Origin: an uncultured Chloroflexia bacterium
Lineage (GTDB): Bacteria > Chloroflexota > Limnocylindria > Limnocylindrales > CSP1-4
Assembly: GCA_963764785.1 (NCBI GenBank)
Contig: CAVXTU010000001.1
Span: 930,643-994,642, forward strand
Reading direction: 5' to 3'
Length of the DNA: 64,000 nt
In this document: piece by piece, positions 1 to 38,637 of the stretch
How positions within the stretch are numbered: position 1 is the first letter of the stretch
Layout of the letters: each line of letters opens with the position of its first letter
The notes under the pieces: model-generated
Seen by the model: only the letters and a program-made list of their open reading frames with translations
What the model was told of the DNA's origin: nothing
The model's database searches: none
Program-made: the position numbers and the translations under genes

Positions 1-687
1 GGTCATCAACTCAAGGTCATCGGAGCGGACGCGCCGGACCATGTTGTTGAGGGCTTGCTCGAAGGGCAGGCCCAGGTTGACCTCGCGGATGACACGATTG
101 AACTCCGTCGAGATCGGCGGCTGTGTCTCCCGCACGACCAGCTCGATGGCCTGCAGGAACGAAGCACCGGCGCGCAGCGCGTTGGCGATCAGCATGATGG
201 TGTCGGCCAGGTGGTCGTTGAAGGCCTGGAGCCGCTTGGCCTTTCGACGATTCACATAGAAACGAGGGACCCACCAGCCGACGATCACCGCGACCAACAG
301 GGCGATGCCATTGTCAAGCCCCGGCAGGACGGTGTTGCCGAGCAGGAAGACGACGATGGGCGCCCCCACGACGAGCGCTGCGCGCAAGGCAAGGTACTCA
401 GAGGGGCGCAGCTGCAGGTCAGCCCGAGCCAGCTCGCGGGCCATGTTGGAGCCCCAGTCGCGGCCCTCCACAGCTCGATCCACGCCGACGGCAGCGCGGC
501 CGCTGAACAGGCGCGAGCGCAAGGACTTCTTTCTGGCTGCCGCTTCTGGGTCGCGAGCCTCGGTGGCCGCGATGGCGACCTGTTCGATCCGCTCGGTGGG
601 CGAGACCCGTCGACCCCCGAACAGGCCGAAGAACAGGAGCATGACCGCAGCGGCAGCCATGAGAGCAACGAGGACGGCAGGATCCAT
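1..687 (-). CDS. tadB: Flp pilus assembly protein TadB (type II secretion system F family), 5' part only; gene runs off window start
   Basis: Manual minus-strand translation from ATG at 687-685: MDPAVLVALMAAAAVMLLFFGL... is a polytopic membrane protein with TadB/GspF-like hydrophobic segments. It lies 10 bp downstream of the cpaF stop. Not in ORF track because there is no stop inside the window. Confidence 0.6.
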   Translation of the reverse strand, partial: MDPAVLVALMAAAAVMLLFFGLFGGRRVSPTERIEQVAIAATEARDPEAAARKKSLRSRLFSGRAAVGVDRAVEGRDWGSNMARELARADLQLRPSEYLALRAALVVGAPIVVFLLGNTVLPGLDNGIALLVAVIVGWWVPRFYVNRRKAKRLQAFNDHLADTIMLIANALRAGASFLQAIELVVRETQPPISTEFNRVIREVNLGLPFEQALNNMVRRVRSDDLELMT

Positions 688-696
688 GCTGAGCTC

Positions 697-2118
697 CTAG
701 GATCGATACCCGAAGAGTGCCGGGGGCAGGCTGATGCCCATCACCTCGAACTTCTCGGTGAACTTGGGACGGATGCCGGTAGGCCGGAGTTTGCCCTGGA
801 TCTGCCCGTCGACGATGCCGGTCTGCTCGAAGGTGAAGACCTCCTGCATCACGATGACATCACCCTCCATGCCCTGCACCTCGGTGATGCTGGTCACGCG
901 GCGGGTGCCGTCCTTGAGGCGTGATTGGTGGACGATGAGGTCGACCGCTGATGCGATCTGCTCGCGGATCGCGCGCAGTGGCAGGTCGACGCCGGCCATC
1001 AGGACCATCGTCTCGACTCGCGAAAGCATGTCGCGCGGACTGTTGGAGTGACCGGTGGACATGGATCCGTCATGACCCGTATTCATGGCCTGCAGCATGT
1101 CGAGGGCTTCAGCCGAACGGACCTCGCCGACGATGATGCGGTCAGGCCGCATACGCAGCGAGTTGCGAACCAGCTCGCGGATGGGGATGGCACCCTTGCC
1201 CTCGATGTTGGGGGGGCGTGACTCCAGCGTGATGACGTGCTCCTGGCGGAGCTGCAGCTCCGCGGCATCCTCGATGGTCACGATGCGCTCGTCGTTGGGG
1301 ATGAACGACGACAACACGTTCAAGGTGGTGGTCTTGCCGGAGCCGGTACCGCCGGACACGAAGACGTTGAGCCTCGCTTCCACACAGGCCTTGAGGAAGT
1401 CGAACATCTCCGGTGTGGCAGTGCCAAAGCGAATCAGGTCGTCGACCGTGAATGGCGAGGCCGCGAACTTTCGGATGGTGATGACCGGTCCGACCAGGCT
1501 CAGCGGCGGGATGATGGCGTTGACGCGGGAACCATCGGTCAGGCGCGCATCCACCATCGGGCTGGACTCATCGACACGGCGGCCGATGGGGCTGATGATG
1601 CGATCGATGATGCGCATCACGTGGTCGTCGTTCTGGAACGACAGGTTGGTCAGCTCCAGTTTGCCGGCACGCTCGATGTAAACCTGTCGTGGGCCGTTGA
1701 CCATGACCTCGGTTATGGACTCGTCACGCAGCAGGGGCTCGAGCGGACCCAGGCCGACGATCTCGTCGGTGATCTGCTCGAGCATCCGCACGCGCTCCGC
1801 GCGAGTGAGAGCAAGACCCTCCTCGTCCACGGCGATGCTGAAGATCTCTTCGATCTGACGCCGCACTTCGACCTGGTTGGTGAGGTCGAGCTTGGGGTCA
1901 AGGTCCGAGATGACGCGTTGCTGGATTCGGTACTTCGTATCGCGGAACGATTCGCGCACCGGCACCTGGGAGATGACGCGCTGGGGTGCCTGGGGTGGCG
2001 GCATGGGCTGACCAGGTGGCGGCATGCCGCCGGGCTGGGGTGGCGGCATCGGTGAACCACCGATGGGCCCGCCCTCGCCGGCTGGCCTGGCACTTTCGAT
2101 CCGCTTCAGCAGTGACAT
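697..2118 (-). CDS. cpaF: CpaF/TadA-type pilus assembly ATPase (type II/IV secretion NTPase)
   Basis: Walker A VSGGTGSGKTTTLNVL, Asp/His boxes and a Pro-rich N-terminus typical of CpaF; TAG stop at 697-699. Confidence 0.9.
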   Translation of the reverse strand: MSLLKRIESARPAGEGGPIGGSPMPPPQPGGMPPPGQPMPPPQAPQRVISQVPVRESFRDTKYRIQQRVISDLDPKLDLTNQVEVRRQIEEIFSIAVDEEGLALTRAERVRMLEQITDEIVGLGPLEPLLRDESITEVMVNGPRQVYIERAGKLELTNLSFQNDDHVMRIIDRIISPIGRRVDESSPMVDARLTDGSRVNAIIPPLSLVGPVITIRKFAASPFTVDDLIRFGTATPEMFDFLKACVEARLNVFVSGGTGSGKTTTLNVLSSFIPNDERIVTIEDAAELQLRQEHVITLESRPPNIEGKGAIPIRELVRNSLRMRPDRIIVGEVRSAEALDMLQAMNTGHDGSMSTGHSNSPRDMLSRVETMVLMAGVDLPLRAIREQIASAVDLIVHQSRLKDGTRRVTSITEVQGMEGDVIVMQEVFTFEQTGIVDGQIQGKLRPTGIRPKFTEKFEVMGISLPPALFGYRS

Positions 2119-2152
2119 TTCGACATCTCCCTAACGAGGATCCATGACGACT

Positions 2153-3385
2153 TCACCGCCGTCCAAAGAGTTTGCGTGAGGCGTCCTTTTCCTCTTCGCT
2201 TTCGGAGTCGCCCTGTTCGGCGACCAGCGCACGCGAGATCTTGAGGATGTCTTCACTGACCGGAGCCTGACTGTTGCTCCATACGAACGGGACGCCACGA
2301 TTGAGGGCATAGACGACGGTGCGACCGTCGGAGACGACCTGGTGATCGATCTTGCGTCCGACCGAGTTCTCGACGTCAGCAACACGGATGCCGAAGGCAG
2401 AGTCAGCCCGGTTCAGGACCAGCTTCAGCCGGTCCCCGTAACCGAGTTGCTCGGCGACCTCCAGGAAGAGACGGATGTTCTTGATGTTGGTGATCTCCAG
2501 CGTGAGGACCGTGAGGATCACATCCGACATGTCCAGGAGGGCCAGGGAGACGTCGTTGAAATGGGGCCACAGGTCCACGATGGTGAAGTCGTTGGTCTGG
2601 CGCAGCCTGTCCATCATGCGTCGGATCTGGTCGACGGTGATGAGCTCAGCCATCTCCGGGCTGGGCGGTGCCAGCAGCACCTTGATGCCGGTGCTGTGGT
2701 TGATCAGCGACGTGTCAACCATGTCCTCATCGGTCGAGGCGGGGTCAGCGACGACATCGATGATGGACTTGTTCTTGGGGTTCAGGTTCAGCAGGACCCC
2801 GACATCACCGAATTGGAACGAGCCGTCCACGAGGGTGACCCGCTGACGCTGCTCGCCGGCCATGGCCACGGCGAGGTTCACGGCAAGGGTCGTGCGACCA
2901 ACGCCGCCCTTCGGGGCGAAGAGGGTAACGATCTTGCCGTTCTTCCGGTCTGTATCACCCGAGCCCCCGGCGCCCGGCGCGGGCACCATCATGCGGCCCC
3001 GCTTCTGCTTCTCGCGGATGAAGACCTGGCGGATCGATGCGGTCAGCTCGTCGGAGCTGAACGGCTTGACCAGGAACTCGCGTGCACCTGCCAGCATGGA
3101 GCGTCGCAGGTAATCGGCTTCACCCTGAACGCTCATCATGATGATGGAGGTCATCGGGAACGTCGCTGAGACGCGCTCGGTGGTGGCGATGCCATCCATG
3201 CCCGGCATGTTGATGTCCATGAGCAGGATGTCGGGCTGCACCTTGCCGGTGATCTCGACAGCTTCTTCGCCCGAGGCGGCCGTGCCGACCACCTCGATGT
3301 CCGATTCGAATGACAGCAGCTTGGTCAGATGCTCTCGGGTCTCGGCGATGTCATCGACGATGACGACACGGATCTGTTCGCTCAT
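2153..3385 (-). CDS. cpaE: Response-regulator receiver domain fused to CpaE/MinD-like ParA ATPase (TadZ-like)
   Basis: N-term REC (VVIVDDIAETRE...DILLMDINMPGMDG) followed by a deviant Walker A FAPKGGVGRTTLAVNLA. Confidence 0.85.
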   Translation of the reverse strand: MSEQIRVVIVDDIAETREHLTKLLSFESDIEVVGTAASGEEAVEITGKVQPDILLMDINMPGMDGIATTERVSATFPMTSIIMMSVQGEADYLRRSMLAGAREFLVKPFSSDELTASIRQVFIREKQKRGRMMVPAPGAGGSGDTDRKNGKIVTLFAPKGGVGRTTLAVNLAVAMAGEQRQRVTLVDGSFQFGDVGVLLNLNPKNKSIIDVVADPASTDEDMVDTSLINHSTGIKVLLAPPSPEMAELITVDQIRRMMDRLRQTNDFTIVDLWPHFNDVSLALLDMSDVILTVLTLEITNIKNIRLFLEVAEQLGYGDRLKLVLNRADSAFGIRVADVENSVGRKIDHQVVSDGRTVVYALNRGVPFVWSNSQAPVSEDILKISRALVAEQGDSESEEEKDASRKLFGRR

Positions 3386-3725
3386 GCTCGGTTCCTCTGG
3401 GCCGCGATGGGCAGGTCGGCCACGGCGGGTGCTACAGGGTAGTCCGCTGTCCAGAAAACGACCAGCCAGTGGCTGGTGTGGCGAACGGCTGGCCCGGGCA
3501 CGAACTCACCGGAGGTAGACAACAAGAGCAGGACTCCAACTGGTGTGACAGGTGTCACCGGAATCCTATGCAGGCCACCCTGTGCAATCGACATGACCAT
3601 CGGGCTATACGGCATAGGAGCCCTGTGTGGGGTGCGGAGCGGTTTCGTTGGGCCTGGATCGGCCGCGCGAGGTCGCGGCGGCTATCATTGCCCCGACATA
3701 CCCCGATCCCCTCAGAGGTTCCTGC

Positions 3726-4637
3726 ATGCGTCAGATCCGGCTGCGCAGATTGCGCAGGCGACTGGGTCTCTACCAGCCACCGACCCCGACACTCAAGGCC
3801 ATGGATCCGGCGAGCGTCCGTCAACGTCGGCGTGTCTTCGAGACGCTGCCGGACTACCCCGAGTGTCCCGAGGGTTGGCACACCGGAGCGCCCGACTTCG
3901 TCATCTTCGGTGCCCAGAAGTCGGGCACTACGTGGTGGTTTCGCCTGATCGAGCAGCATCCTGATGTGGTCCAACCCGTCAACCAACGGCCGGAACTGCA
4001 TTTCTTCGATCGTCTCTGGGCGGAATGGCCGGATGACGAGGCTATCGCCAGCTATCACCGCTACTTCCCTCGTCCTGGGGGCAAAATCGTCGGTGAGAAG
4101 ACGCCCGAATACCTCTCCTGTCCCTGGGCTCCGCCCATGGTCAAGCTGGCTGCCCCTGATACCAAGGTCATCGTGCTGCTCCGCGACCCGGTGGAGCGCT
4201 ACATCTCCGGCATGAGCCACATGGACCGCGGTGGACTGCTTGATGAGTCCGAGGCCGAGGGGGTCGTGCGGGTGCTGGGTGATCGGATGCGCGTCGTGTC
4301 CGATGCCATCTCTCGCGGGCTGTACGCTGGACAGCTGCAGTGGCTCCTGGAGTCGTACCCGGCCGAGAACGTGCTGGTCTTGCCCTACGAGGCCTGCGCT
4401 GCCGATGCGGCTGGGCAGCTGTCCAGGACCTTCGAGTTCCTGGGCCTGGCGCCGTTCCAGCTCCCCACCGAAGAATTGGCTCGAGCGCGCAACAAGGCGA
4501 AGCTTGAGAAGGTGGCAGTGCCTGACGAGCATATCGAGCTGCTGCGTCGGTACTACCGATCGGACGTCGAGCGGTTGCATTCCATGATGCCGGAGCTCGA
4601 CCTGTCCCTGTGGCCACATTTCAAGGAGTTGGCCTGA
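3726..4637 (+). CDS. PAPS-dependent sulfotransferase family protein (start uncertain: GTG 3627, ATG 3726 or ATG 3801)
   Basis: 5'-PSB loop FGAQKSGTTWW and 3'-PB motif LLRDPVERYISGMSH, the two sulfotransferase signature motifs. Confidence 0.75.
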   Translation: MRQIRLRRLRRRLGLYQPPTPTLKAMDPASVRQRRRVFETLPDYPECPEGWHTGAPDFVIFGAQKSGTTWWFRLIEQHPDVVQPVNQRPELHFFDRLWAEWPDDEAIASYHRYFPRPGGKIVGEKTPEYLSCPWAPPMVKLAAPDTKVIVLLRDPVERYISGMSHMDRGGLLDESEAEGVVRVLGDRMRVVSDAISRGLYAGQLQWLLESYPAENVLVLPYEACAADAAGQLSRTFEFLGLAPFQLPTEELARARNKAKLEKVAVPDEHIELLRRYYRSDVERLHSMMPELDLSLWPHFKELA

Positions 4638-4668
4638 CCATCCGCGTCCGACTTCGCGGAGCGTGAAG

Positions 4669-4698
4669 CGGCGCCGGCCGTTGTGGCCGACGCCGTTT
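4669..4698. terminator. GC-rich hairpin (cggcgccggcc-gttgt-ggccgacgccg) followed by TTT, between convergent sulfotransferase and Flp pilin genes
   Basis: Inverted repeat with one mismatch read directly from the sequence; T-run follows on + strand. Confidence 0.45.
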
Positions 4699-4722
4699 CG
4701 TCATTCGGATCGAGACCTTCGG

Positions 4723-4887
4723 TTAGATCTGCACGCCGATGGTCGAAAGGATGTTCGAGATCTCGCCGCCGAGGAAGATGAGGGCGGCGATCGCGATGAT
4801 GGCGATCAAGGCAAGGATCAGAGCGTACTCAGCAAGGCCCTGTCCGTCCTCGTCCCTGGTGTTGAGCCAGTCGTTGAAAACAGTCAC
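4723..4887 (-). CDS. flp: Flp/Fap family type IVb pilin (54 aa, GTG start); missed by ORF track (<60 aa)
   Basis: Revcomp translation VTVFNDWLNTRDEDGQGLAEYALILALIAIIAIAALIFLGGEISNILSTIGVQI*. The G/xxxxEY prepilin peptidase motif plus hydrophobic helix is the canonical Flp pilin signature. RBS GGAAGGAGG sits 9 nt upstream; TAA stop at 4723-4725. Confidence 0.85.
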   Translation of the reverse strand: MTVFNDWLNTRDEDGQGLAEYALILALIAIIAIAALIFLGGEISNILSTIGVQI

Positions 4888-5024
4888 GTGGTACTACCTC
4901 CTTCCCGTCTGGATTCGCGCTCTCGGCAGCGCTGACCCAGACACTGCATGCTCGGCAGGAGTCTCGAAATGGGTGGTCGGTACACCACCCCTGGGACCAC
5001 CGGTCCGGGTAGATCTTGCTGGTC

Positions 5025-5762
5025 CTACCGGGAGAGCGGCGCCACCAGCTCCATGACTTGACCCTCATCACGCATGGTCAGCTTCATGCCCAGGGCTCGC
5101 GCCCGAGCAGCGATCTCGTTGACCCGATCGGGCGCCAGGGCCCTGGACGCGATGTGCGCCTCACGCTCTGCGGACCGCTTCTCCTCCATCATCGCGAGGA
5201 GGGCTGGAGGAGTGTCCGCGGTGCGAGCCGCGGCGGCTGCACTGGACTCGGATTGACCCTCGGCGCTAACACGGGGCCAGGTGCCTTCGACGGTCGCCAC
5301 CAGTTCGTGGGCCGACCAATCCAGCCGCACCAGCACCGAGGGTGGCGTGAGCGCAAGGTAGCCCACGATGGCTTCATCGACGCTGCGGTAGACCGCACTC
5401 TCGATGTCCGTATCGATGCGCTCCTCGATGCCATGTGAACCGAAATCGACGTTGATGCCAGACCGGCGCCCACGGTCGCTGGCGATACGGCGGATGGTCG
5501 GACCAAGGCCCAGGTCGTCCAGCACCATCGGCCGGATCTCGAAGATGAAGGACTTGGTCGTGTCGAGGGCCTGCTGGACGAGCTGTCGCAAGACCTCGAC
5601 CTCGTCCCCGGCGCGTGCATCGCCCTTCTGCATGAGGCGCTCGACGATCTCCGCCTGAAGTCCGATATTGGCGATCGACTGCGCGGGGCCGTCGTGGAGC
5701 CGTCGCACGATATCGCGTCGCAGGTCCTCCTGGCCTCGGAGTACCGCGGCAGGCTGATTCAT
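5025..5762 (-). CDS. HisKA_3-type (NarL-family) histidine kinase core with apparently degenerate ATP-binding motifs
   Basis: H-box RRLHDGPAQ and the RPMVLDDLGLGPTIRR helix are present. The expected N-box Asn and DxGxG/GxGL motifs are not recognisable (VDEAIVGYLAL, TVEGTW). There is no TM/sensor domain. Confidence 0.55.
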   Translation of the reverse strand: MNQPAAVLRGQEDLRRDIVRRLHDGPAQSIANIGLQAEIVERLMQKGDARAGDEVEVLRQLVQQALDTTKSFIFEIRPMVLDDLGLGPTIRRIASDRGRRSGINVDFGSHGIEERIDTDIESAVYRSVDEAIVGYLALTPPSVLVRLDWSAHELVATVEGTWPRVSAEGQSESSAAAAARTADTPPALLAMMEEKRSAEREAHIASRALAPDRVNEIAARARALGMKLTMRDEGQVMELVAPLSR

Positions 5763-6364
5763 GCCGGGCGCACCGCTCCCCCGGCCGCGGCCGCGAGCGC
5801 CCGGAGTCCGGACGTGGCGGTTGGCGCTGGACGACTGGCGCCTCCAGCCATCGAAGCCAGGCTGTTGTCGATCTCGACGAGACGTTGGAGGAAGCGCGCC
5901 AGGATGCGCTGCTTTCCTTCGAGCACCTGTCGCTGGGCGTCGAACAGGAGCTCGCGACGCGTCAATGCCAGCAGGCTATCGCGAAGCTCGGATAGCTCAT
6001 CGGCATCTGGAGCGGCACCCGTTTCCAGCGCCGAGAGACGCTGCTCCATCTTGGCGCGCCGCGTTTCGTGGCGCTCGATCTCGACAAGGACCTGCTCCGT
6101 GAGCATGTCGATCTCGCCGTTCTCGCCATCGATCCGACGGATGTCATCCTCTAGCTCGGCGCGCAGGCTCTGGACGCTGGAGCCGCCGAGTTGCGCCGCG
6201 GAGCGGACCGCAGGCGACCCGGCAGCTGTGGCTGAGCCCGCTGCCGGCGGAGCCGAGGGCACCGATGGGTTCGGACCGCCCCTGTCAGCTGGCCCGGGGT
6301 TGGCTGCTTGATCGCCCCCTGTCCCTGGAGGACCGGGAGCGCCGGGACGCTCCGGGTTGCTCAA
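5759..6364 (-). CDS. Pro/Gly-rich + coiled-coil protein, translationally coupled (ATGA overlaps) between the RR and kinase-core genes
   Basis: Heptad-like LRAELEDDIRRIDGENGEIDMLTEQVLVEIERHETRRAKMEQRLSALE; 4-nt overlaps at both ends. Confidence 0.5.
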   Translation of the reverse strand: MSNPERPGAPGPPGTGGDQAANPGPADRGGPNPSVPSAPPAAGSATAAGSPAVRSAAQLGGSSVQSLRAELEDDIRRIDGENGEIDMLTEQVLVEIERHETRRAKMEQRLSALETGAAPDADELSELRDSLLALTRRELLFDAQRQVLEGKQRILARFLQRLVEIDNSLASMAGGASRPAPTATSGLRALAAAAGGAVRPA

Positions 6365-7107
6365 TCTTCGGGGATCCTGATCCAGCCCTGCTTCATGGCG
6401 TAGACCACAGCCTGGGTGCGGTCGTTGACGGAGAGCTTGCGGAGGATCGAGCTCATGTGGTTCTTGACGGTCTGCTCGCTGATCGACAAGGCATAGGCGA
6501 CCTGCTTGTTGGTCATACCTTTGGCGATGTTGTCAAGGATCTCGACCTCGCGGGGTGAGAGCGGCGCGAAGATCGGAGCCGCCTCCTGCCCATACACGGC
6601 CAGCTCACGGAATTCCTTGAGCACCCGATTGGCGACCGACGGTCGGGCGAATACCTTGTCGTTGATGAGGTACTCGCCGGCATTGACGCGACGGATGATG
6701 GTCACCAGGTCCTCAGGTCCGATGTCCTTGAGCAGGAACGCCGCCGCACCCGCCTTGATAGCTTCGAACAGCTGATCCTCGTCTTCATTCGTGGCCAGGG
6801 CGATGATCCCGGCACTGGGGACCTCGCGCTTGACACGCTGCGTCGTCTCGATCCCTCCCGGCGCGGGCAACGATAGGTCGAGCAGCACGATGTCCGGCGT
6901 GCTGGCACTCGCAGCATCGATCGCGCTTCGTGAATCATCCGCCTCGGCGACGACTTCGAAGTCGTCTTCGGCCTCAAGGGTCTGCCGCATGCCCACGCGG
7001 TACAGAGCGTGGTCATCGACGAGCAGGATCTTGACGCGCATGCCGGGCTCTCGCCGGTCCGGCCCTCCACGGCGCCGATCAGGTCCCTTGTACTCGCCCG
7101 GAGTCAT
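6361..7107 (-). CDS. NarL/LuxR-family response regulator (likely real start at MRVKILLVDDH, ~7044)
   Basis: REC domain VKILLVDDHALYRVG...DIVLLDLSLP and a C-terminal LuxR HTH LSPREVEILDNIAKGMTNKQVAYALSISEQTVKNH. Confidence 0.85.
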   Translation of the reverse strand: MTPGEYKGPDRRRGGPDRREPGMRVKILLVDDHALYRVGMRQTLEAEDDFEVVAEADDSRSAIDAASASTPDIVLLDLSLPAPGGIETTQRVKREVPSAGIIALATNEDEDQLFEAIKAGAAAFLLKDIGPEDLVTIIRRVNAGEYLINDKVFARPSVANRVLKEFRELAVYGQEAAPIFAPLSPREVEILDNIAKGMTNKQVAYALSISEQTVKNHMSSILRKLSVNDRTQAVVYAMKQGWIRIPED

Positions 7108-7312
7108 ACCACGCTCCTCTCCCTGGGGTCAGGCCCGAGCCAGGTGGTCGTGCCTGCATCTGCTTGGCTGACGATAACCGTCCGTGCGTTCCGGGTTTGC
7201 ACCACGACACACACGAGAGGCCTCCCCATCCGTTGCCGCCGCGTGTGCAGCGTCCCGTCGTTCATGTGGCTCGGAGTATAGGCGTTAAGGCGGGCGTCTC
7301 TTGCGCGTCTGC

Positions 7313-8962
7313 TCATCGGGTGACACAGCCGGTGTCGAGCCTGAACAGCCACGCCGGCTCCGGCTCATCGGTCAACCACTCCGGCGGGGTGGACAGGCAA
7401 CCAGCCGCGGCCTCGGTGAGCAACGCCTCGGGGTAGCGGCCTCGTTCGCCCGCCACGACGACCCACGGTGCGTCGAATGTGCGACTCAAGGCGAGCAGGC
7501 TGTCGAGATCCTCGTTGGGCAGGGCTACGGCATTGGTACCGAGTGCATCGGCGATCCACATGGGATGGTCGCTGATGACGGTGTCGGGTACGGATACTTC
7601 GTCGCGGGTCGCCACGGCCTCGACAGCTCTTGCCACCGCTTCGTACCGCTCCTGCGTGGCCTGAGACTGCGTCGAGAAGACCTGTACCTGGAATGCCGTC
7701 AGTAGCCCAGCCATGGTGACCAACGCGATCGGGGCCAGGATGACGTTGGGCTTCTCCCACTTTCGCTTGGCGGAAACGCGGGCCAGCAGGGCATCTCCAC
7801 CGAGGGCGGAAAGGACGATCAGGGCGACCAGCAGTGGCCCTGAGGAGTGCATGAACGTGCCCCACAGCGTGGCCACCGGAAAGAGCAGCATGGTGGTGAT
7901 GAAGGTCAGGCCACTGCTGATGAGCAAGGTCAAGAGCGCGGTCGGTCGATGCAGGGCTGGCGATCGTCTCATGCCCAGCAGGGCCAGCAGGCCGACGATG
8001 CCGACCGGGAATGCCGTGAAGGCGATGACGTTGAGGAAACTGTCCCAGGTCGCCGCCAGTGGGTTCCCCAGGACCGTGACGAGGCCCTGGCCAAAGTAGC
8101 TGGCCGCATCGGCGTGGTCGCGGAACGCGAAGATGTCCTCGTTGTCGATGAGGAACATGTTCTCGACGGCCTGTCCGGGAAAGGGGCTTCCAAGGTCGAC
8201 GAGGTTTCGGAGCAGCCACGGGACGACCACGATGATGCCCCCGGCTGCCACTGGCCAGAGTCGCCCTGCTACATCGCGCAAGCGTCCTGTCGGCATCGCG
8301 CGCGCCACCCACCAGCTCATCAGCACGACCGTGAGCCCAAGCCAGATGACCTCCTGGCGCGACAGGTAGGCGCAACCCAGTACGAGGCCCAGTCCCAGCC
8401 CGGCCAGCCGATGACGGCCGCCAGCGTCGCGGACACCATGCCGGAACCCCAGCACGCGTGGCACGAGCAGTGCCGCGACGCCCATGAAGACGGTGAACGG
8501 CGTGAACGAGTCTGGCACCGCCGCGCCCAGTACCAGCGGGCTCAGCACGGCCGCCAGCACGCCGGAGGCGATGGCTACGGCACCGCCCCGACGACGATCG
8601 AGCGCCTGCGTGGTGGCTGCCTCGCGGCCCACCGCCCAGGCCAGGGGTGCCACGAGCGATCCCAGCAACGCTCCGCCCAGCTGGGCCACGCCGTAGCCCG
8701 TACCCAGCACCGCCATGGGTAGGGACGAGACGAATGTGCTCATCGGTAGCCACAGTTCGAACGCCGGCTTCGGCGCCACCAGTGGCAGAGTGGCGAAGCT
8801 CCAGACGCCGTGGCTGACCAGTCCCTGACCGGCGATGAGATTGCGCGCGACATCGGCGTAGTACGCGCTTGGCTCGGTCGTCGGGAAAGGGATCTGCTCG
8901 GCAGCGATGATGCGGATGGCCAGGGCCAGCAGATACAGGCCTACCGGGACGAGCACCGTCAT
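7313..8962 (-). CDS. GT-C fold membrane glycosyltransferase (PMT_2 / ArnT-like, polyprenyl-phosphate-sugar dependent)
   Basis: Multi-TM protein with the first-loop motif EPSAYYADVARNLIAGQG (D/E-x-x-YY-A-x-x-AR-x-L-x-x-G), characteristic of GT39/GT83. Start chosen at internal MTVLV, giving an ATGA overlap with the upstream paralog. Confidence 0.7.
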   Translation of the reverse strand: MTVLVPVGLYLLALAIRIIAAEQIPFPTTEPSAYYADVARNLIAGQGLVSHGVWSFATLPLVAPKPAFELWLPMSTFVSSLPMAVLGTGYGVAQLGGALLGSLVAPLAWAVGREAATTQALDRRRGGAVAIASGVLAAVLSPLVLGAAVPDSFTPFTVFMGVAALLVPRVLGFRHGVRDAGGRHRLAGLGLGLVLGCAYLSRQEVIWLGLTVVLMSWWVARAMPTGRLRDVAGRLWPVAAGGIIVVVPWLLRNLVDLGSPFPGQAVENMFLIDNEDIFAFRDHADAASYFGQGLVTVLGNPLAATWDSFLNVIAFTAFPVGIVGLLALLGMRRSPALHRPTALLTLLISSGLTFITTMLLFPVATLWGTFMHSSGPLLVALIVLSALGGDALLARVSAKRKWEKPNVILAPIALVTMAGLLTAFQVQVFSTQSQATQERYEAVARAVEAVATRDEVSVPDTVISDHPMWIADALGTNAVALPNEDLDSLLALSRTFDAPWVVVAGERGRYPEALLTEAAAGCLSTPPEWLTDEPEPAWLFRLDTGCVTR

Positions 8963-10698
8963 GGCAGGCACCGGGGGTCGTCGGGCTCCAGGCACACGGC
9001 ATAGAGCGCAGCGCTCGGTCGTGGCACCTGATCGGCCGCATCTCCGTCGAGTGGCAGCGGTGGGCCCAGCACGATCGGCTCGGAAAGCCAGGGCGGCCGT
9101 GTCTCACCAGTCAGGACGGGAAGGAGCGCACTGGTGATGTGATTGCCCTCAAGGGCCAGCCACCGAACGCCGTAGAGTCGCAGAGCCTCTTCAACGACGG
9201 GCAGGGGATCGTCAGGTGTCACGATCCCGGACCACCCGCCGTGGTAGCGATACGCTCCGGCATCGGGGCTCATGATGACGTCGCCGGGCGTTGCCTCCTC
9301 CTGGAGGGCAGCCAGGATGTCGAGCCGATTGTCACGCTCCTCGCGCCAGGCGGTGGCGGTGGTCAGGCTGGCAACGACGGACACCACGGCGATGACGCCG
9401 ACGGCGATGAAGCTGATGTTGCGAGTCGCGCGGGGAGGATCCCACGAGGGGCGGCGCGCCGCCACGGCACGAACCACGATCGCCAGGCCCAGCAGAGACA
9501 GCAGGTAGGCATGCGGTATCAGCGCGACCGCAGAATGGATGAAGGTCCCGAAGGGTACGTGGACAGCGGAGACCAGCGCCGTGAACGCGAACAGGGCGAA
9601 GGCGTAGATGATCCAGGGCGTGAAGTTGGGGTCGCGTCGGGATCGCCACCCCCCGACGAGCAACAGGGGCACGAGGACCACAAGCAGCGGCAGCGCGATG
9701 AAGATCAGCAGCGCATCCCAAAGTCCGCCGAGCCTGCTTTCGATGATCGCTGGGAGGCCTTGCCCGAGAAACGAGTCAAGCGTGGTCTCGGTGGAGACGC
9801 TATACAGCTCACGGTACTCGGTGATGAAAAGGATCCGGCCACCGACCGAAGAGGGCGACAGGGACCCGAAGACGTCGAGCTGGCGCAGCAGCCATGGTAC
9901 GGAGACCAGCGCGAAGCCGGCCAGGCACAGGATGGCCGGCCACCAGCCGATACGGGCAGCTCGTGGTGCCCGGAGCAGGTCGTACAGGAACGCCACAGCG
10001 AATGGAACGCCCAGCAAGATCCCGTCGTTGCGGGACAGGAATGCGACGCCGACCATCAGGCCCCCAAGTGCGAACGAGCGCCGGTCGCCCCGCAGTCCCC
10101 GTGCGCAGAGCCATAGCGCGAGCGCGCCGAGCAGCATGAATAGGGCGAAGTTGTCCGGTTGTCCGAGGTACGGCGAGACAGCGGCCGGCATGGCCACCAG
10201 GAGACCCGCCGCAGCCGCCTGCCAGACCGGCATGCCAGCGTCCCGGCCGATGAACCAGGTGAGTGGCGCTACCGCGGCGGCGGCCAGCCAGAATGGCAGG
10301 CTGGCCGCGAGCGCTGTCGGACCCAGGATCCAGATGAAGGGCACTTGTACGAGCGCCGCCAATGGCATCCAGTGAGCGTTCGACGGGATCGGCAGCACAC
10401 CGTGGGCCGGGAGCACCCCGCCGACCTCGACGAAGTTCCAGATGTAGTCCACATTGAATCCCCCGCCGGAGGCGAGCTCCCGCGCTACATTGGCGTAGTA
10501 GTAGGCGTCGGGATAGGCCGGCTCCATGAAGAGAGCCGCGGTAGCTGCGCGCACGACGAGGGCGATCGCGAAGAGCAGGATGGGGATCGCCATGGCCAGG
10601 ACACCGTAGCAACGCACGACCGTGCTCCCCGGGGGTACGAATGGGCCATGACCGGGGGCCATGATGTTCGGCCTGGTGCGGTGCTGTGGGCTCGGCAT
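8959..10698 (-). CDS. GT-C fold membrane glycosyltransferase, paralog of 7313-8962
   Basis: Motif EPAYPDAYYYANVARELASGGG and many TM helices; tandem with its paralog. The overlapping ORF 7365..9107 is an Arg-rich wrong frame. Confidence 0.7.
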   Translation of the reverse strand: MPSPQHRTRPNIMAPGHGPFVPPGSTVVRCYGVLAMAIPILLFAIALVVRAATAALFMEPAYPDAYYYANVARELASGGGFNVDYIWNFVEVGGVLPAHGVLPIPSNAHWMPLAALVQVPFIWILGPTALAASLPFWLAAAAVAPLTWFIGRDAGMPVWQAAAAGLLVAMPAAVSPYLGQPDNFALFMLLGALALWLCARGLRGDRRSFALGGLMVGVAFLSRNDGILLGVPFAVAFLYDLLRAPRAARIGWWPAILCLAGFALVSVPWLLRQLDVFGSLSPSSVGGRILFITEYRELYSVSTETTLDSFLGQGLPAIIESRLGGLWDALLIFIALPLLVVLVPLLLVGGWRSRRDPNFTPWIIYAFALFAFTALVSAVHVPFGTFIHSAVALIPHAYLLSLLGLAIVVRAVAARRPSWDPPRATRNISFIAVGVIAVVSVVASLTTATAWREERDNRLDILAALQEEATPGDVIMSPDAGAYRYHGGWSGIVTPDDPLPVVEEALRLYGVRWLALEGNHITSALLPVLTGETRPPWLSEPIVLGPPLPLDGDAADQVPRPSAALYAVCLEPDDPRCLP

Positions 10699-10804
10699 GG
10701 GACCATGGGGCCATCCTGGATCGCACCTGCGCCCGCTAGCCTGTCAGCGTGATGGACTATCGCCAGCCTCGAGCTGCGCTGCCGCCTCGCCTGCTGTCAC
10801 GACC

Positions 10805-11632
10805 ATGACGGCTGAACCCGGTCGCCCCAGTCTGACCATCGTGCTGCCGGCCTACAACGAGGCAGAGCGGATCGGGCCTGCCCTCGACGAGCTGTTCGGA
10901 TGGCTTCAGCGCGGGGGTCCGGCACGCTCGCGCGGCTACTCGGCCGACGAGCTTGGAAGCTGGGATGTCCTCGTCGTCGACGACGGCTCTGAGGATGCGA
11001 CGGTTGCGATCGTCGAGGCTCGACCAGAAGCCCAGCAGGTGGAACCCGGCACACCGCCTCGCCTCCGCGTGCTGCGGCGGCCACATGCGGGCAAGGGTGC
11101 GGCTGTGGAAGCCGGAGTCCTTGCCGCTGATGGTGACCTCGTCCTCTTCGCCGATGCCGACATGGCCACGCCACCTGACCAGATCCCGCTGCTGACCCGT
11201 GCCTTGGCCTCGCATGACGTCGCATTGGGCAGCCGCATCCAACCGGACGGGTCCGACCGGCGATCCAGTCAGCCCGGTTATCGACGCCTGCTTGGCCGTG
11301 TCTACCGCCTCATCGCTGGCGCCTGGGTCACCGGAGACGTGCCTGACACGCAATGCGGGTTCAAGGGCTTCCGCCGTGCTGCCGGCCAGGAAATCTTCGG
11401 CCGACTCAAGACAGATGGCATCGCCTTCGATGCAGAGGTCATCTACCTGGTGCGTCGACTTGGCTACCAGTACGCCATCGTGCCGGTCATGTGGCACGAC
11501 ATCCACGGCTCACGCATGCGCGTGCGGCCTGGCCTGGCCTTGAGTGTGTTGTGGGACCTGCTGCGCATCCCCTTCATCCATCGAGACGTCCGGGCCCGGC
11601 AGGCGACTCCGTCGCCCAGCGATCCGGGCTAG
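10805..11632 (+). CDS. GT2 polyprenol-phosphate hexosyltransferase (Ppm1/GtrB/DPM1-like)
   Basis: LTIVLPAYNEAERIGPALDEL...VLVVDDGSEDAT...FADADMATPP (DXD) ...QCGFKGFRR. Start at ATG 10805. Confidence 0.8.
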   Translation: MTAEPGRPSLTIVLPAYNEAERIGPALDELFGWLQRGGPARSRGYSADELGSWDVLVVDDGSEDATVAIVEARPEAQQVEPGTPPRLRVLRRPHAGKGAAVEAGVLAADGDLVLFADADMATPPDQIPLLTRALASHDVALGSRIQPDGSDRRSSQPGYRRLLGRVYRLIAGAWVTGDVPDTQCGFKGFRRAAGQEIFGRLKTDGIAFDAEVIYLVRRLGYQYAIVPVMWHDIHGSRMRVRPGLALSVLWDLLRIPFIHRDVRARQATPSPSDPG

Positions 11633-11672
11633 CGCGAGTTCGAGCACGGCGCTCGTGGGCGATCTCTGACCG

Positions 11673-12746
11673 TCAGGGGCGGAGGACGCTCCAGTAGCGC
11701 TCGGCCGCGCCCGTATCGACCCCTCCAGCCTCGGCCACGCGCGCCGCGTAGCCTGTCACGGCATCGAGCATGCCCTGCTCACTCTCGAACAGCCGCTGGA
11801 CCTGGCTGGCATACATGAGCAATCCCGCATTCTTGCGCTCCAGCTGGTCGCTGATGTCCGAATAGCGAGCCTCCAGAGCCATGCCGGGCGGTATCGCGGC
11901 ACCCAGCGTCGCCAGGTCGGCGGCACCCGCGAACCCCGACCACCAGGCATAGGGAAAGTCCTCATAGAAGGAGATGCTGCCGGCCAGGTCCGGGACGGGC
12001 ATGACCCAGGCTTCCTCGTCGGCGCCTATCGCCAAGCCGGCATCCCGGACCAGCCGATGGTCCACATGACCGCCGACACCCAGCGGGAAGTACACGCGCT
12101 GCGGCTCGAGCCTGAGGATCTCCCGCCGAAGGATGTCCGTCGGTGGCTCGTCATCCTCGAATGGCTGGCCCAGGCGGGCGTCGTCATCCTCATATCCGCG
12201 ATGGATAGCGTCGGGCAGGTCGAGATCGACGATCGCCGCCTCGATGAAGTACGCGTATCGTTCGTCTTCTGCCTTGCGCATGGCTGTCGCATCGCCTGCC
12301 GCCAGATCACGGACTGCGAGCGTGCCCTGGGTGGAGACGTCGTCGCGCAAGGGCCGATCTTCATGGCTGTCGTTGGTGATGTTGGCGCTCCGCGTCCACG
12401 CGGCTCGCTGCCAGAACTGGCGCGCCTGGGTGTTGGCGCGGTCTTGCGTCACGGCCATGCGCTCAGGATCAGCCTGCCACGGCGCCGCCACGGCGGTCGA
12501 TCCCGAGACCGGGTATTCGGCGGCGATATTGGAGCGATCGAAGGCCTGGGTGTTGGGGTGGAGTGCCTTGGTACCGAACCCAAGGGCGACACGTCGATAG
12601 TCGTCGAACTCGACGCCAGCGTCAGGTCCGCCGGAATAGACCGTCAGGATGGTAACGGTCTGACCGAGCTCGCGAAGGCTGGCGATGAGGCCGCCACAGG
12701 AAAGGGCGACATCGTCTGGATGTGGTGCCACGAAGACATGTGTCAT
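11673..12746 (-). CDS. PIG-L/LmbE family N-acetylglucosaminyl deacetylase with ~200-aa C-terminal extension
   Basis: MTHVFVAPHPDDVALSCGGLIASL matches the LmbE/PIG-L signature (HPDDE + GG). Confidence 0.7.
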   Translation of the reverse strand: MTHVFVAPHPDDVALSCGGLIASLRELGQTVTILTVYSGGPDAGVEFDDYRRVALGFGTKALHPNTQAFDRSNIAAEYPVSGSTAVAAPWQADPERMAVTQDRANTQARQFWQRAAWTRSANITNDSHEDRPLRDDVSTQGTLAVRDLAAGDATAMRKAEDERYAYFIEAAIVDLDLPDAIHRGYEDDDARLGQPFEDDEPPTDILRREILRLEPQRVYFPLGVGGHVDHRLVRDAGLAIGADEEAWVMPVPDLAGSISFYEDFPYAWWSGFAGAADLATLGAAIPPGMALEARYSDISDQLERKNAGLLMYASQVQRLFESEQGMLDAVTGYAARVAEAGGVDTGAAERYWSVLRP

Positions 12747-12781
12747 CGCTCGCGAGGATAGCATCGGGCCATCGGGTTGGA

Positions 12782-13414
12782 TCAGTCGGGGTGGCCATAC
12801 TGCCCGACTAGGGGCACGAAGACGCACGACTCACTCGTCCGCGTGGTCACATCTCGGCCCCGTCGGTGGACCACGGTGATGCGTTGCGACGAGCGAGTCC
12901 CGATCGGGATGACCAGGCGTCCGCCGTCCGCCAGTTGAGCGACCAGGGGCCCTGGGACGCTCGGCGCGCCAGCACCGACCACGATGCCGGCATACGGCGC
13001 GTGATCCGACACGCCCAGGCTGCCGTCCGCCACCACGATGTCGACGTCGTAGCCGAGACCTGCGAGTCGGTCTCGTGCTGCCTCGGCGAGCTCAGCATCC
13101 CGCTCGACCGAGACGACGCGACCGCCGAGCTGCGCGAGCACGGCAGCCTGATAGCCCGAGCCCGTCCCAACGTCAAGGAACGTGGGGCCATCGCCCGGCC
13201 ACGGCCAGCCAAGTTCGACCAATCCCAGGGCCTGCGTCATCAGCGCGACCATGAACGGCTGCGAGATCGTCTGGCTCCGGCCGATGGCGAGCGCGCCATC
13301 CGAATACGCCTGACCCCGCTGGCCGGGTGGCACGAAGGCTTCCCGCGGGACCACGCCCAGTGCGGCGAGTGTCGCCGGGTCATGGATGCCGCGAGCCTGC
13401 AGCTGGGAGCGCAC
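12782..13414 (-). CDS. pcm: Protein-L-isoaspartate O-methyltransferase
   Basis: MVRSQLQARGIHDPATLAALGVVPREAFVP...LDVGTGSGYQAAVLAQL...VVSVERDAELAE. The upstream RPRPLL portion of the track ORF is an alternate-frame read-through. Confidence 0.8.
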   Translation of the reverse strand: MRSQLQARGIHDPATLAALGVVPREAFVPPGQRGQAYSDGALAIGRSQTISQPFMVALMTQALGLVELGWPWPGDGPTFLDVGTGSGYQAAVLAQLGGRVVSVERDAELAEAARDRLAGLGYDVDIVVADGSLGVSDHAPYAGIVVGAGAPSVPGPLVAQLADGGRLVIPIGTRSSQRITVVHRRGRDVTTRTSESCVFVPLVGQYGHPD

Positions 13415-13502
13415 CATCTGTCTGCGCGCAACTGCGAACTCGTCGTGCCTGGATCCGACGTCGTTTTGGTTCACCCCATGTCGACGAGGCCCGTGTGCGG
13501 GT

Positions 13503-14171
13503 TCATGGCTGAGGCGTGAAGCACGGGACCGGAGATGGCGCGTCGGAAGCCCCGGGCGACGGGTCGGGCGATGGGCACGGTCCGATGGATGGTGTTCGCG
13601 ACGCGGAGGGCTGCGACGTCGGTGTGGCCGTGGGTTCGGGCGTCGGGGACGCGGTCGGCTCAGGAGTGGGCGAGGCCGTCGGCTCAGGAGTGGGCGTGGC
13701 CGTCGGCTCAGGAGTGGGCGTGGCCGTCGGCTCAGGAGTTGGCGACGCGGTCGGTCCCGAAGTGGGCGTGGCCGTGGGCTTGGGCGTTGGTGAGGCAGTT
13801 GGCTCGAGTGTCGGCGATGCCGAGGGCGAGACACTGGGCCCAGCGCTAGCAGAGGCCAGCGGGCTCGCGCTCAGGCTTGGCTCGGGCGATGGGGAAGATC
13901 CGCTGGAGAAGATATCTGCGAGCAAGCCGCCGCGTCCGAGCAGGATGGCGTACGCGAAGATCAGGGCGAACACCGCGATGATGATCGCCACCCACCACTT
14001 GCTGACGGGGTCGTCGATGTACGGGATCTCGTCGCCGCCTCTTGCCACGGGCGTCCTTGGGGGAACAGTCGTGGTACCGGATGCAGGTTCCAGTTCTCCC
14101 GGGGCTTCGACCGGCGATTCCGGCATCTCCCCTTCGGAGATAGCGTCTTCAGGCTTGTTCTGGTCGGTCAT
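13503..14171 (-). CDS. Single-pass membrane protein with Pro/Thr-rich TPEPTA(T/S)P repeat linker
   Basis: One TM helix (WWVAIIIAVFALIFAYAILL) followed by ~12 PTxPE octapeptide repeats. Confidence 0.55.
   Translation of the reverse strand: MTDQNKPEDAISEGEMPESPVEAPGELEPASGTTTVPPRTPVARGGDEIPYIDDPVSKWWVAIIIAVFALIFAYAILLGRGGLLADIFSSGSSPSPEPSLSASPLASASAGPSVSPSASPTLEPTASPTPKPTATPTSGPTASPTPEPTATPTPEPTATPTPEPTASPTPEPTASPTPEPTATPTSQPSASRTPSIGPCPSPDPSPGASDAPSPVPCFTPQP
13650..13820. repeat. Degenerate 24-bp tandem repeat (~7 copies) encoding the TPEPTATP linker
   Basis: gccgtcggctcaggagtgggcgtg repeated head-to-tail on + strand. Confidence 0.7.
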
Positions 14172-38549: not shown

Positions 38550-38637
38550 AGAAACGGACACTTGTGTCGGGAACGGCCCAGAAGGGTAGGCCGCATCGCT
38601 CGCACGACCGCGCTGAGTCCCGTAAGGTCCGACTGCC

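Follow-up and report, generated by a model that had tools for sequence, protein, structure and literature searches.

A Tad/Flp pilus locus of Limnocylindria (Chloroflexota) with GT-C genes and a DegS/DegU-like system: a candidate module for glycosylation of a Tad-related substrate

Tad/Flp pili are among the most widespread organelles of adhesion and surface sensing. To our knowledge, no enzyme modifying an Flp pilin has been defined so far; full-text searches on Flp/Tad pilin glycosylation yielded none, nor did such searches bring up any account of Chloroflexota Tad loci with linked GT-C enzymes. Among the closest described systems is TfpW, a GT-C enzyme whose gene lies right after pilA and which is required for pilin glycosylation, using a lipid-phosphate sugar from a separate cytoplasmic pathway and modifying Ser/Thr residues of the pilin outside the membrane (bioRxiv 10.1101/2020.04.19.049825). 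Among Flp pilins, Flp1 of A. actinomycetemcomitans has been reported as glycosylated (PMC6182317). Here we describe a 64-kb stretch of contig CAVXTU010000001.1 (the window, positions 1-64000), in which flp and tad genes are accompanied by two GT-C genes, a two-component system, a GT2 glycosyltransferase, a PIG-L-type deacetylase and a sulfotransferase. We tentatively favour, at close to even confidence, the reading of this region as a Tad/Flp locus with an accessory module that is widespread in the phylum, consisting of the GT-C pair and a DegS/DegU-like system, that would glycosylate a Tad-related substrate.

The gene map was built by selection of open reading frames (ORFs) guided by GC content at third codon positions and by Pfam and NCBIfam scans of the window. 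All genes named in the original prediction are present at roughly the same coordinates; its list had lacked the two-component system sitting between flp and the GT-C genes. Its actinobacterial framing concerned the wrong taxon: the named homologues belong to Chloroflexota and Candidatus Limnocylindrales metagenome-assembled genomes (MAGs), which places the host, a soil bacterium, in the Chloroflexota (Limnocylindria).

GT-C genes beside flp and tad genes across Chloroflexota

Both tandem GT-C enzymes of the locus (GTC1 and GTC2) are present as predicted, and the fold of GTC2 is nearest to that of ArnT. The AlphaFold model of GTC2, computed with a 63-sequence alignment (pLDDT 93, pTM 0.92), shows the ArnT-like fold in full, down to the external C-terminal domain. 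The best Foldseek matches were the ArnT structures 5f15 and 5ezm (E 5e-8, TM score 0.54-0.57), followed by the protein oligosaccharyltransferases STT3, AglB and PglB and by AftA, ALG9 and DPY19, and Pmt1/2 and Pmt4 were weak fold matches (E 0.01-0.06, TM score 0.30-0.33). Three residues of GTC2 are invariant among the 63 relatives, namely D64, the acidic residue of loop 1 within 'PAYPDAYYY', and R223 and D225, which form an R-x-D motif; H388 is conserved in at least 90% of them. GTC1 gave no Pfam match and contains about 10 hydrophobic segments; it shares 27% identity with GTC2 over the full length (E 4e-29), which identifies the two proteins as paralogues. In the GTC1 counterpart of the loop-1 motif, 'TEPSAYY', a conserved Glu stands one position earlier than the Asp of GTC2. 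When the GT-C proteins were compared with PDB entries by sequence or profile, no match was obtained; solved relatives emerged from the fold search alone. As for family assignment, the window proteins match PMT_2 (PF13231) weakly and PF02366 not at all, which argues against membership of GT39 (PMT); membership of GT83 (ArnT) finds no sequence-level PDB match and no arnA/B/D genes, and the neighbours are tad and two-component genes. By analogy with its family, and with a GT2 resembling dolichol-phosphate mannose synthases (DPMS) and ArnC in the adjacent gene, GTC2 would be expected to use a polyprenol-phosphate-linked sugar. An ArnT-like action on lipid A was set aside on grounds of taxon and gene context; Chloroflexota are generally regarded as devoid of lipid A.

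The search with GTC2 of representatives clustered at 50% identity yielded 1516 clusters, whose named members belong to other Chloroflexota, and the profile search for cultured carriers returned MAGs only. The metagenome scan added 80 further loci, which were examined by tblastn and Flp-motif analysis; the alignment of distant members was limited to a 7-sequence subset, as a 16-sequence alignment was too diverse. In this metagenome sample, 20 loci extended 7 kb or more downstream, and 10 of them had flp or tad machinery near the GT-C gene, compared with 0 of 55 control loci of similar size (Fisher's exact p = 2e-7). Where enough sequence was available, a second membrane protein of about 520 amino acids (u523) was encoded near the GT-C gene in 39 of 59 loci, a LuxR-type regulator in 18 of 36 and a HisKA_3 kinase in 12 of 29. 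Alignment with hhalign relates u523 remotely to GTC1 (probability 96.4%, E 1e-9), and the theme of two different GT-C-like proteins is therefore shared by the window and the distant loci. The linked GT-C relatives either belong to blocks of the order GT-C, GT-C-like, regulator, kinase, flp, cpaB, cpaE, cpaF and tadB or directly adjoin flp; they are 29-40% identical and stand between unrelated flanks, with the upstream sequences falling into several unrelated groups, and tad-linked members occur throughout the GT-C family in a rough neighbour-joining tree. Since the link between GT-C and pilus genes recurs in distant lineages with unrelated flanks, it is not merely inherited synteny.

One such locus is L086 (GT-C 32% identical), in which two GT-C genes and a GT-C-like gene are followed by a histidine kinase, a response regulator, a second histidine kinase, flp, cpaB, REC::cpaE, cpaF, tadB and tadC, within flanks comprising the his operon and the genes for histidyl-tRNA synthetase and NfeD. 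The fusion of a receiver domain (REC) to CpaE is also encoded in L096, L159, L163 and L168; the search with CpaE itself reached only relatives at 85% identity or above. In L090 (29%) a DegS-like kinase gene is followed by two flp genes and a GT-C gene; L131 is of the same kinase-flp-GT-C type, and both are without other tad genes within 10 kb. The GT-C gene of L092 is convergent with flp, and TadE and TadG genes lie near that of L088 (40%). In L173, from an Anaerolineae MAG, an array of GT-C-type genes precedes a kinase-regulator-kinase series and a gene for a TadE-domain protein. The latter (L173:14365-18612, 1415 amino acids) combines TadE and CARDB domains with an Flp-like leader, KGQG/MVEFALIL, and resembles a giant pilin-like protein. 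The response regulator comes after the GT-C pair in distant loci too, and the equivalent kinases of L086, L090 and L173 match the Pfam DegS model. This recurrent arrangement suggests with good confidence that the GT-C pair is functionally coupled to the pilus system.

A composite locus of a second lineage was obtained from L101 and L102:385-5120, contigs from different metagenomes that overlap with 99.9% identity. It carries genes for a PMT_2 GT-C enzyme, a DPMS-like GT2, a methyltransferase, a flippase-like LPG_synthase_TM protein, a GT-C enzyme, a GT-C-like protein, a response regulator and a histidine kinase. The GT2 of L102, whose similarity to DPMS is clear (E 3e-37), shares 29% identity with that of the window; the tailoring enzyme is a methyltransferase, as opposed to the deacetylase and sulfotransferase of the window.

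The Limnocylindria locus and its clade-specific genes

Table 1. Features of the window around the flp gene, with the evidence for each.
Feature	Positions	Strand	Evidence and remarks
tadB, N-terminal 232 amino acids	1-696	-	T2SSF, E 5e-8; gene continues past window start
cpaF/tadA secretion ATPase	697-2118	-	Pfam T2SSE, E 1.8e-64
REC::cpaE (TadZ), canonical receiver domain	2153-3385	-	Response_reg, E 1.2e-27, and AAA_31/ParA
Divergent control region of cpaE and sulfotransferase, 340 bp	3386-3725		Invariant blocks and palindrome GTGACAGGTGTCAC
Carbohydrate sulfotransferase of the 3'-phosphoadenosine-5'-phosphosulfate (PAPS) type, 303 amino acids, predicted cytoplasmic	3726-4637	+	Sulfotransfer_1, Sulfotransfer_3
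GC-rich hairpin between convergent sulfotransferase and flp	4670-4694		From sequence
flp pilin, 54 amino acids	4723-4887	-	Translation, ribosome-binding site, Flp_Fap, E 1e-4
DegS-like HisKA_3 histidine kinase, cytoplasmic, two reading frames	5025-6364	-	HisKA_3, E 7e-11
LuxR/NarL-type response regulator (REC and GerE)	6361-7107	-	Pfam, E 6e-25 and 2e-22
GTC1, first GT-C-fold membrane protein	7313-8995	-	Paralogue of GTC2, E 4e-29
GTC2, second GT-C, PMT_2/ArnT-like	8959-10698	-	PMT_2, E 3.5e-6; AlphaFold and Foldseek
GT2, putative polyprenol-phosphate-sugar synthase type	10805-11632	+	Glycos_transf_2, E 5e-25
PIG-L/LmbE-type de-N-acetylase	11673-12827	-	PIG-L, E 1.4e-13

On the minus strand the genes run toward flp in the order GTC2, GTC1, LuxR-type regulator and HisKA_3 kinase, and the GT2 gene is divergent from GTC2 and convergent with the PIG-L gene (Table 1). 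The interleaving of pilus and modification genes described earlier holds for the sulfotransferase, which is nested among the tad genes, and not for the GT genes, which form a separate block. The presence of tadB, cpaF and REC::cpaE was borne out by their T2SSF, T2SSE and Response_reg plus AAA_31 matches. The window itself begins inside tadB, which is followed by tadC in the relatives L001 and L003, and CpaF is 88-96% identical across the home clade. Genes for a prepilin peptidase (TadV/CpaA) and for TadE/TadF were not encountered among the window ORFs scanned or in the L001 and L003 gene tables, and may lie elsewhere in the genome. Likewise, tblastn at E <= 1 detected no cpaB/rcpC homologue, whether in the window or among the Limnocylindria loci (L001-L085); other Chloroflexota have cpaB between flp and cpaE, the slot held here by the sulfotransferase gene.

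The predicted 54-residue flp gene is present. It starts with GTG, has GGAGG as its ribosome-binding site and encodes the processing motif G/XXXXEY in the form DG/QGLAEY, after which a hydrophobic helix follows (DG/QGLAEYALILALIAIIAIAAL). Its Pfam match lies under the curated cut-off of Flp_Fap, and the gene is kept as a coding gene in 12 other orthologous loci. The predicted mature Flp has 39 residues (QGLAEYALILALIAIIAIAALIFLGGEISNILSTIGVQI), and its external C-terminal tail ends in ...GGEISNILSTIGVQI. The 3' ends of the sulfotransferase and flp genes are 85 bp apart, and in other loci compensating changes preserve the stem of the hairpin between them.

The histidine kinase has neither a transmembrane segment nor a sensor domain. 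In the window its gene is split into two frames, the shift falling between about 5759 and 5813, and matches HisKA_3 without a HATPase_c match; in L003 it is a single gene of 432 amino acids, of which tblastn located residues 46-171 in one frame of the window and 189-432 in another. The frameshift could be an assembly error or a real one; split genes were also seen in many related MAG contigs. The response regulator is 89-96% identical across the clade, and its REC and GerE domains are clear-cut.

The GT2 of the locus appears to be DPMS/ArnC-like, in line with the prediction, with Pyrococcus Dol-P-Man synthase 5mlz and ArnC as its best PDB matches, a modest similarity (E ~4e-10); its best NCBIfam match is EpsD, and a DXD-type sequence, 'DADM', is present. 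Its ORF is open from 10661 and the likely start at 10805 gives 275 amino acids, as in homologues. The proposed GlcNAc-type (N-acetylglucosamine) deacetylase is likewise there, and its PIG-L zinc-site motifs PHPDD and HVDH are found within VAPHPDDVALSCGG and GGHVDHRLV, respectively. The gene had been given an end at 12746, a position that is in fact an internal ATG. Among solved proteins, the enzyme comes nearest to Dbv21 and Orf2*, which deacetylate GlcNAc-pseudoaglycones. The sulfotransferase is, as described earlier, a PAPS-type enzyme encoded convergently with flp, and it is of the carbohydrate class. Heparan sulfate glucosamine 3-O-sulfotransferases (E 7e-21) and the N-sulfotransferase domain of NDST (E 5e-13) are the closest solved proteins, and its GxxKxGT, ExHFFD, EKTPxY and RDPVxR motifs align with the heparan-sulfate enzymes. 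GAQKSGTTW, RDPVERYIS and PELHFFD are invariant in the family and align with 3-OST-3A. No transmembrane segment was predicted in GT2, PIG-L or the sulfotransferase.

Conservation within Limnocylindria was assessed from the contexts of sulfotransferase homologues together with a scan of GTDB species genomes. All 27 loci with a sulfotransferase orthologue (27 species; 57-78% identity, L005 included) share the order tadB-cpaF-cpaE, sulfotransferase, flp where present, kinase, regulator, one or two GT-C genes, GT2 and PIG-L, and the orthologue always lies between cpaE and flp or the kinase. The synteny with tad genes expected by the original prediction thus extends beyond the clade for the GT-C pair, and is confined to a single clade for the sulfotransferase, GT2 and PIG-L genes, which on this distribution appear as clade-specific additions to the module. 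Counting the window, flp lies between the sulfotransferase and kinase genes in 13 of 28 loci. Where it is missing, the kinase gene abuts the sulfotransferase gene, cpaE-cpaF-tadB-tadC is intact and no flp is found within 10 kb on either side, so that the pilin gene must lie elsewhere or have been lost; the loci listed as flp-less are L001, L003, L006-L008, L013, L015, L019, L021 and L023-L029. In L006 and L007, the GT-C and GT2 genes are present in divergent versions.

A single GT-C gene is found in the orthologous loci L009 and L019. L019 has GTC2 only and no flp, and L009 (11059-11220, 13559-15226) has kept a GTC1-like gene and flp and lacks GTC2. The Flp tail of L009 ends in ...ILNEIG, where nearly every other copy has ...LS[ST][IV]G and one of the pair in L005 has LSDVG; it is a single case that we regard as a lead for the acceptor site.

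Outside this set, the sulfotransferase paralogues (38-56% identity), found in these genomes as well as in Acidimicrobiales and Gaiellaceae, have no tad, GT-C or PIG-L neighbours; their neighbours are genes of glycan tailoring, such as those for pyruvyl transferase, AT3-SGNH acyltransferase, polysaccharide deacetylase and a Kdo-kinase-like protein. The Limnocylindria paralogue (L039-L058, e.g. L041:8574-9998) regularly has a same-strand DUF4032/Kdo-kinase-like gene of about 475 amino acids upstream, with which it looks like a separate conserved pair, and a HAD hydrolase gene nearby.

The intergenic region of cpaE and the sulfotransferase gene contains invariant blocks in an alignment of 24 loci. 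Among them is a perfect palindrome, GTGACAGGTGTCAC, at 3545-3558, with further invariant blocks on either side; it has a single exact copy in the window and presumably resembles a CRP-type TGTGA-N6-TCAC site. A scan of 3300-5100 for sigma-70 promoters and terminators gave nothing informative. The control region shared with cpaE, together with the occupation of the cpaB slot, speaks for a connection of some kind between sulfotransferase and pilus genes.

Two neighbouring regions merit mention. Beyond the PIG-L gene, 'orf217' (12866-13519, +) was discarded as the probable shadow of an opposite-strand PCMT methyltransferase gene. A DUF5317::MFS fusion of 662 amino acids (14282-16270, -), located downstream of the PIG-L and PCMT genes in the window, is kept in many orthologous loci at 74-91% identity. 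Farther away, a 3226-residue ORF (38626-48306, +; about 75% GC) holds 38 PASTA domains (Pfam E = 0, 1095 bits).

Candidate substrate, donor and alternative explanations

Glycosylation of a Tad-related substrate by the GT-C enzymes would take place on the outer face of the cytoplasmic membrane, with the sugar taken from polyprenol phosphate. The likeliest substrate would be the short external C-terminal tail of Flp, modified before or during assembly. The pilin is favoured because its gene directly adjoins a lone GT-C gene in three loci, and because of the precedents of TfpW, encoded after pilA, and of Flp1; its role as the acceptor comes near to an even prospect in our judgement. For Limnocylindria, the neighbouring genes would supply the donor, at the cytoplasmic face: the DPMS/ArnC-like GT2 would load N-acetylhexosamine (HexNAc) on polyprenol phosphate, PIG-L would de-N-acetylate polyprenol-P-HexNAc to the hexosamine form (polyprenol-P-HexN), the heparan-sulfate-type sulfotransferase may sulfate the lipid-linked amino sugar, and the sulfated polyprenol-P-HexN would be flipped and transferred to the pilin tail. 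The predicted solubility of GT2, PIG-L and the sulfotransferase fits chemistry at the cytoplasmic face; since all three are soluble, they would act before flipping. An amino sugar is preferred to mannose because a deacetylase and a sulfotransferase are encoded. Supply of the donor by GT2 and PIG-L is possible, at rather less than even confidence, and sulfation of the transferred sugar is doubtful. The proposal in its full form, a dedicated Flp glycosylation by the GT-C pair under DegS/DegU-like control in Chloroflexota, with a sulfated amino sugar in Limnocylindria, is improbable. As judged from gene content, pilin glycosylation appears plausible and its sulfation pathway speculative.

Direct sulfation of the pilin tail was rejected: the sulfotransferase, which needs cytoplasmic PAPS, has no membrane segment or export signal and hence cannot reach the external tail. 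Sulfation of Tyr in the EY motif of Flp is conceivable, yet the catalytic motif is of the sugar-sulfotransferase type.

Several observations weigh against a modification of the pilin or against the sulfated donor. PAPS-synthesis, flippase and prepilin-peptidase genes were not seen in the window, and the lack of an export signal in the sulfotransferase belongs here as well. None of the 55 paralogue loci places a sulfotransferase gene near tad genes, and flp is missing from its position in 15 of the 28 orthologous loci, where the GT and sulfotransferase genes are retained. The Ser that follows the conserved hydrophobic residue of the tail is presumably a common Flp feature in other taxa and not specific evidence. 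The palindrome GTGACAGGTGTCAC has no second copy in the window and nothing like it occurs in the flp upstream alignment; the alignments, which covered the cpaE-sulfotransferase and flp upstream regions, thus give no support to a common regulator site. Of the distant GT-C loci that were informative, about one half are without flp or tad genes nearby, L089, L171 and L172 show no tad link, and some of the unlinked GT-C genes lie in polysaccharide-type clusters (Wzy_C, Bac_transf) or GT-C arrays. Furthermore, the Caulobacter Tad pilus structure (PMC10710030) is devoid of density for a glycan, and Flp glycosylation is therefore not general.

The strongest alternative is that the GT-C, GT2, PIG-L and sulfotransferase proteins decorate an envelope glycoconjugate (wall polysaccharide, lipoglycan or surface-layer protein), the connection with tad being regulatory and running through the DegS/DegU-like system, which would switch on this remodelling of the surface along with the pili as an adhesion regulon. 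This explanation, though unlikely in our estimate, stays strong. It accommodates the half of the GT-C family that is not tad-linked, the fact that around half of the clade dispenses with flp at this locus, and the position of the two-component system, which is always between the GT-C genes and flp/tad. The GT-C-type genes (GT87, PMT, PMT_2) that Anaerolineae loci carry in rows of four to six have the look of polymer builders, and family members outside tad loci sit with Wzy_C, Bac_transf, YfhO and GT2 genes. The combination of a GT2, a deacetylase and a GT-C enzyme is moreover the logic of ArnC/ArnD/ArnT-type modification of lipids and wall with amino sugars, which we count for an envelope acceptor. 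It is less easily reconciled with the loci in which a kinase gene, two flp genes and a GT-C gene follow each other, or a GT-C gene converges with flp, as these place the pilin gene directly beside a single GT-C gene; nor does the window locus contain a polymerase, a flippase or an initiating phosphoglycosyl transferase.

Co-localisation by descent only, with the sulfotransferase, GT2 and PIG-L (possibly also the GT-C pair) unrelated to the pilus, is a good deal less likely. The entire region of about 20 kb is syntenic in Limnocylindria, and because its housekeeping flanks (MreB, PHP, HTH regulator and ribosome hibernation factor) are equally conserved, synteny within the clade cannot separate function from descent, a further point against our preferred reading. 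The unrelated contexts of the sulfotransferase paralogues and the absence of the sulfotransferase and PIG-L genes from distant tad-linked loci agree with descent. The recurrence of the GT-C pair and two-component system in lineages with unrelated flanks (p 2e-7) speaks against it, as do, for the sulfotransferase, its place in the cpaB slot and the strongly conserved divergent control region shared with cpaE. Finally, it is very unlikely that the GT-C-like proteins act mainly as membrane sensing partners of the soluble kinase, relaying an envelope or surface-contact signal to the pilus genes: the kinase without transmembrane segment or sensor domain, the same-strand block of GT-C, GT-C-like, regulator and kinase genes in many loci and the divergence of GTC1 and u523, which match no Pfam GT model, would suit such a role, but GTC2 has a complete ArnT-like fold with invariant acidic and basic residues at the positions expected of an active GT-C enzyme, and the kinase-flp-GT-C loci have no regulator and no second GT-C-like gene.

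Returning to a GT-C module that acts on a Tad-related substrate, the GT-C pair and two-component system found at flp/tad genes across Chloroflexota provide a concrete candidate for Flp modification. If the pilin is indeed the acceptor, this would be the first defined machinery of Tad pilin glycosylation, extending the TfpW-like mode of GT-C pilin glycosylation to the minimal type IVc pilins, in hosts that are abundant and mostly uncultured soil and sediment bacteria. It would also be the first sulfated glycan on a bacterial pilus if the full proposal holds, and sulfation of a lipid-linked sugar by a cytoplasmic enzyme would be an uncommon way for bacteria to arrive at a sulfated glycan on their surface. 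Should the acceptor belong to the envelope, the module would still mark an adhesion-linked regulon of surface remodelling in a poorly studied phylum.

Comparison with described systems

The two-component system recalls DegS/DegU of Bacillus, which controls surface behaviours: in both cases the kinase is soluble, combines an N-terminal coiled coil with a HisKA_3 domain and is paired with a LuxR-type regulator. The window kinase differs in being frameshifted and having no HATPase_c match. The sulfotransferase shares its PAPS-binding loops and the catalytic E-x-H-F-F-D motif with the heparan sulfate enzymes 3-OST and NDST, and the nearby GlcNAc-type deacetylase gene echoes the order of deacetylation followed by sulfation in NDST. 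Those enzymes are Golgi-lumenal and act on a polymer, whereas the window enzyme is predicted to be soluble and cytoplasmic; the deacetylase here belongs to an unrelated fold family and is encoded by a separate gene.

The actinobacterial pair of Ppm1 and Pmt (GT39) follows a comparable scheme, in which a polyprenol-phosphate sugar made by a GT2 enzyme is transferred by a GT-C enzyme to Ser/Thr residues of exported proteins. The GT-C protein of the window differs in matching PMT_2 only and in a fold nearer to ArnT (TM score 0.54-0.57) than to Pmt1/2 (TM score 0.33). In the ArnC/ArnD/ArnT system, polyprenol phosphate receives an N-acylated amino sugar from a GT2 enzyme, the amine is freed by a deacylase in the cytoplasm, and transfer of the amino sugar outside the membrane falls to a GT-C enzyme. 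GTC2 finds its best structural match in ArnT, and GT2 has ArnC among its own best matches. Related amino-sugar systems are FlmF2/NaxD/FlmK of Francisella, LgmABC of Bordetella and PpgS/Rv3779 of mycobacteria. All of these act on lipid A or arabinogalactan and have no counterpart of the flp/tad link or the sulfotransferase, and their deacylases are of the ArnD/NaxD type, in contrast to the PIG-L/LmbE type here.

TfpW, which serves D-arabinofuranosylation of the type IVa pilin in group IV Pseudomonas aeruginosa, differs from the present enzymes in several respects. Its substrate has a globular head, as opposed to the 39-residue Flp of the window, and it contains TPR domains; no sequence relationship with the GT-C proteins described here was detected, and it has neither a paired second GT-C nor a two-component system. 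Action on the pilin is proposed here by analogy with TfpW, with which the locus has in common that the gene of a GT-C-fold membrane enzyme stands beside the major pilin gene.

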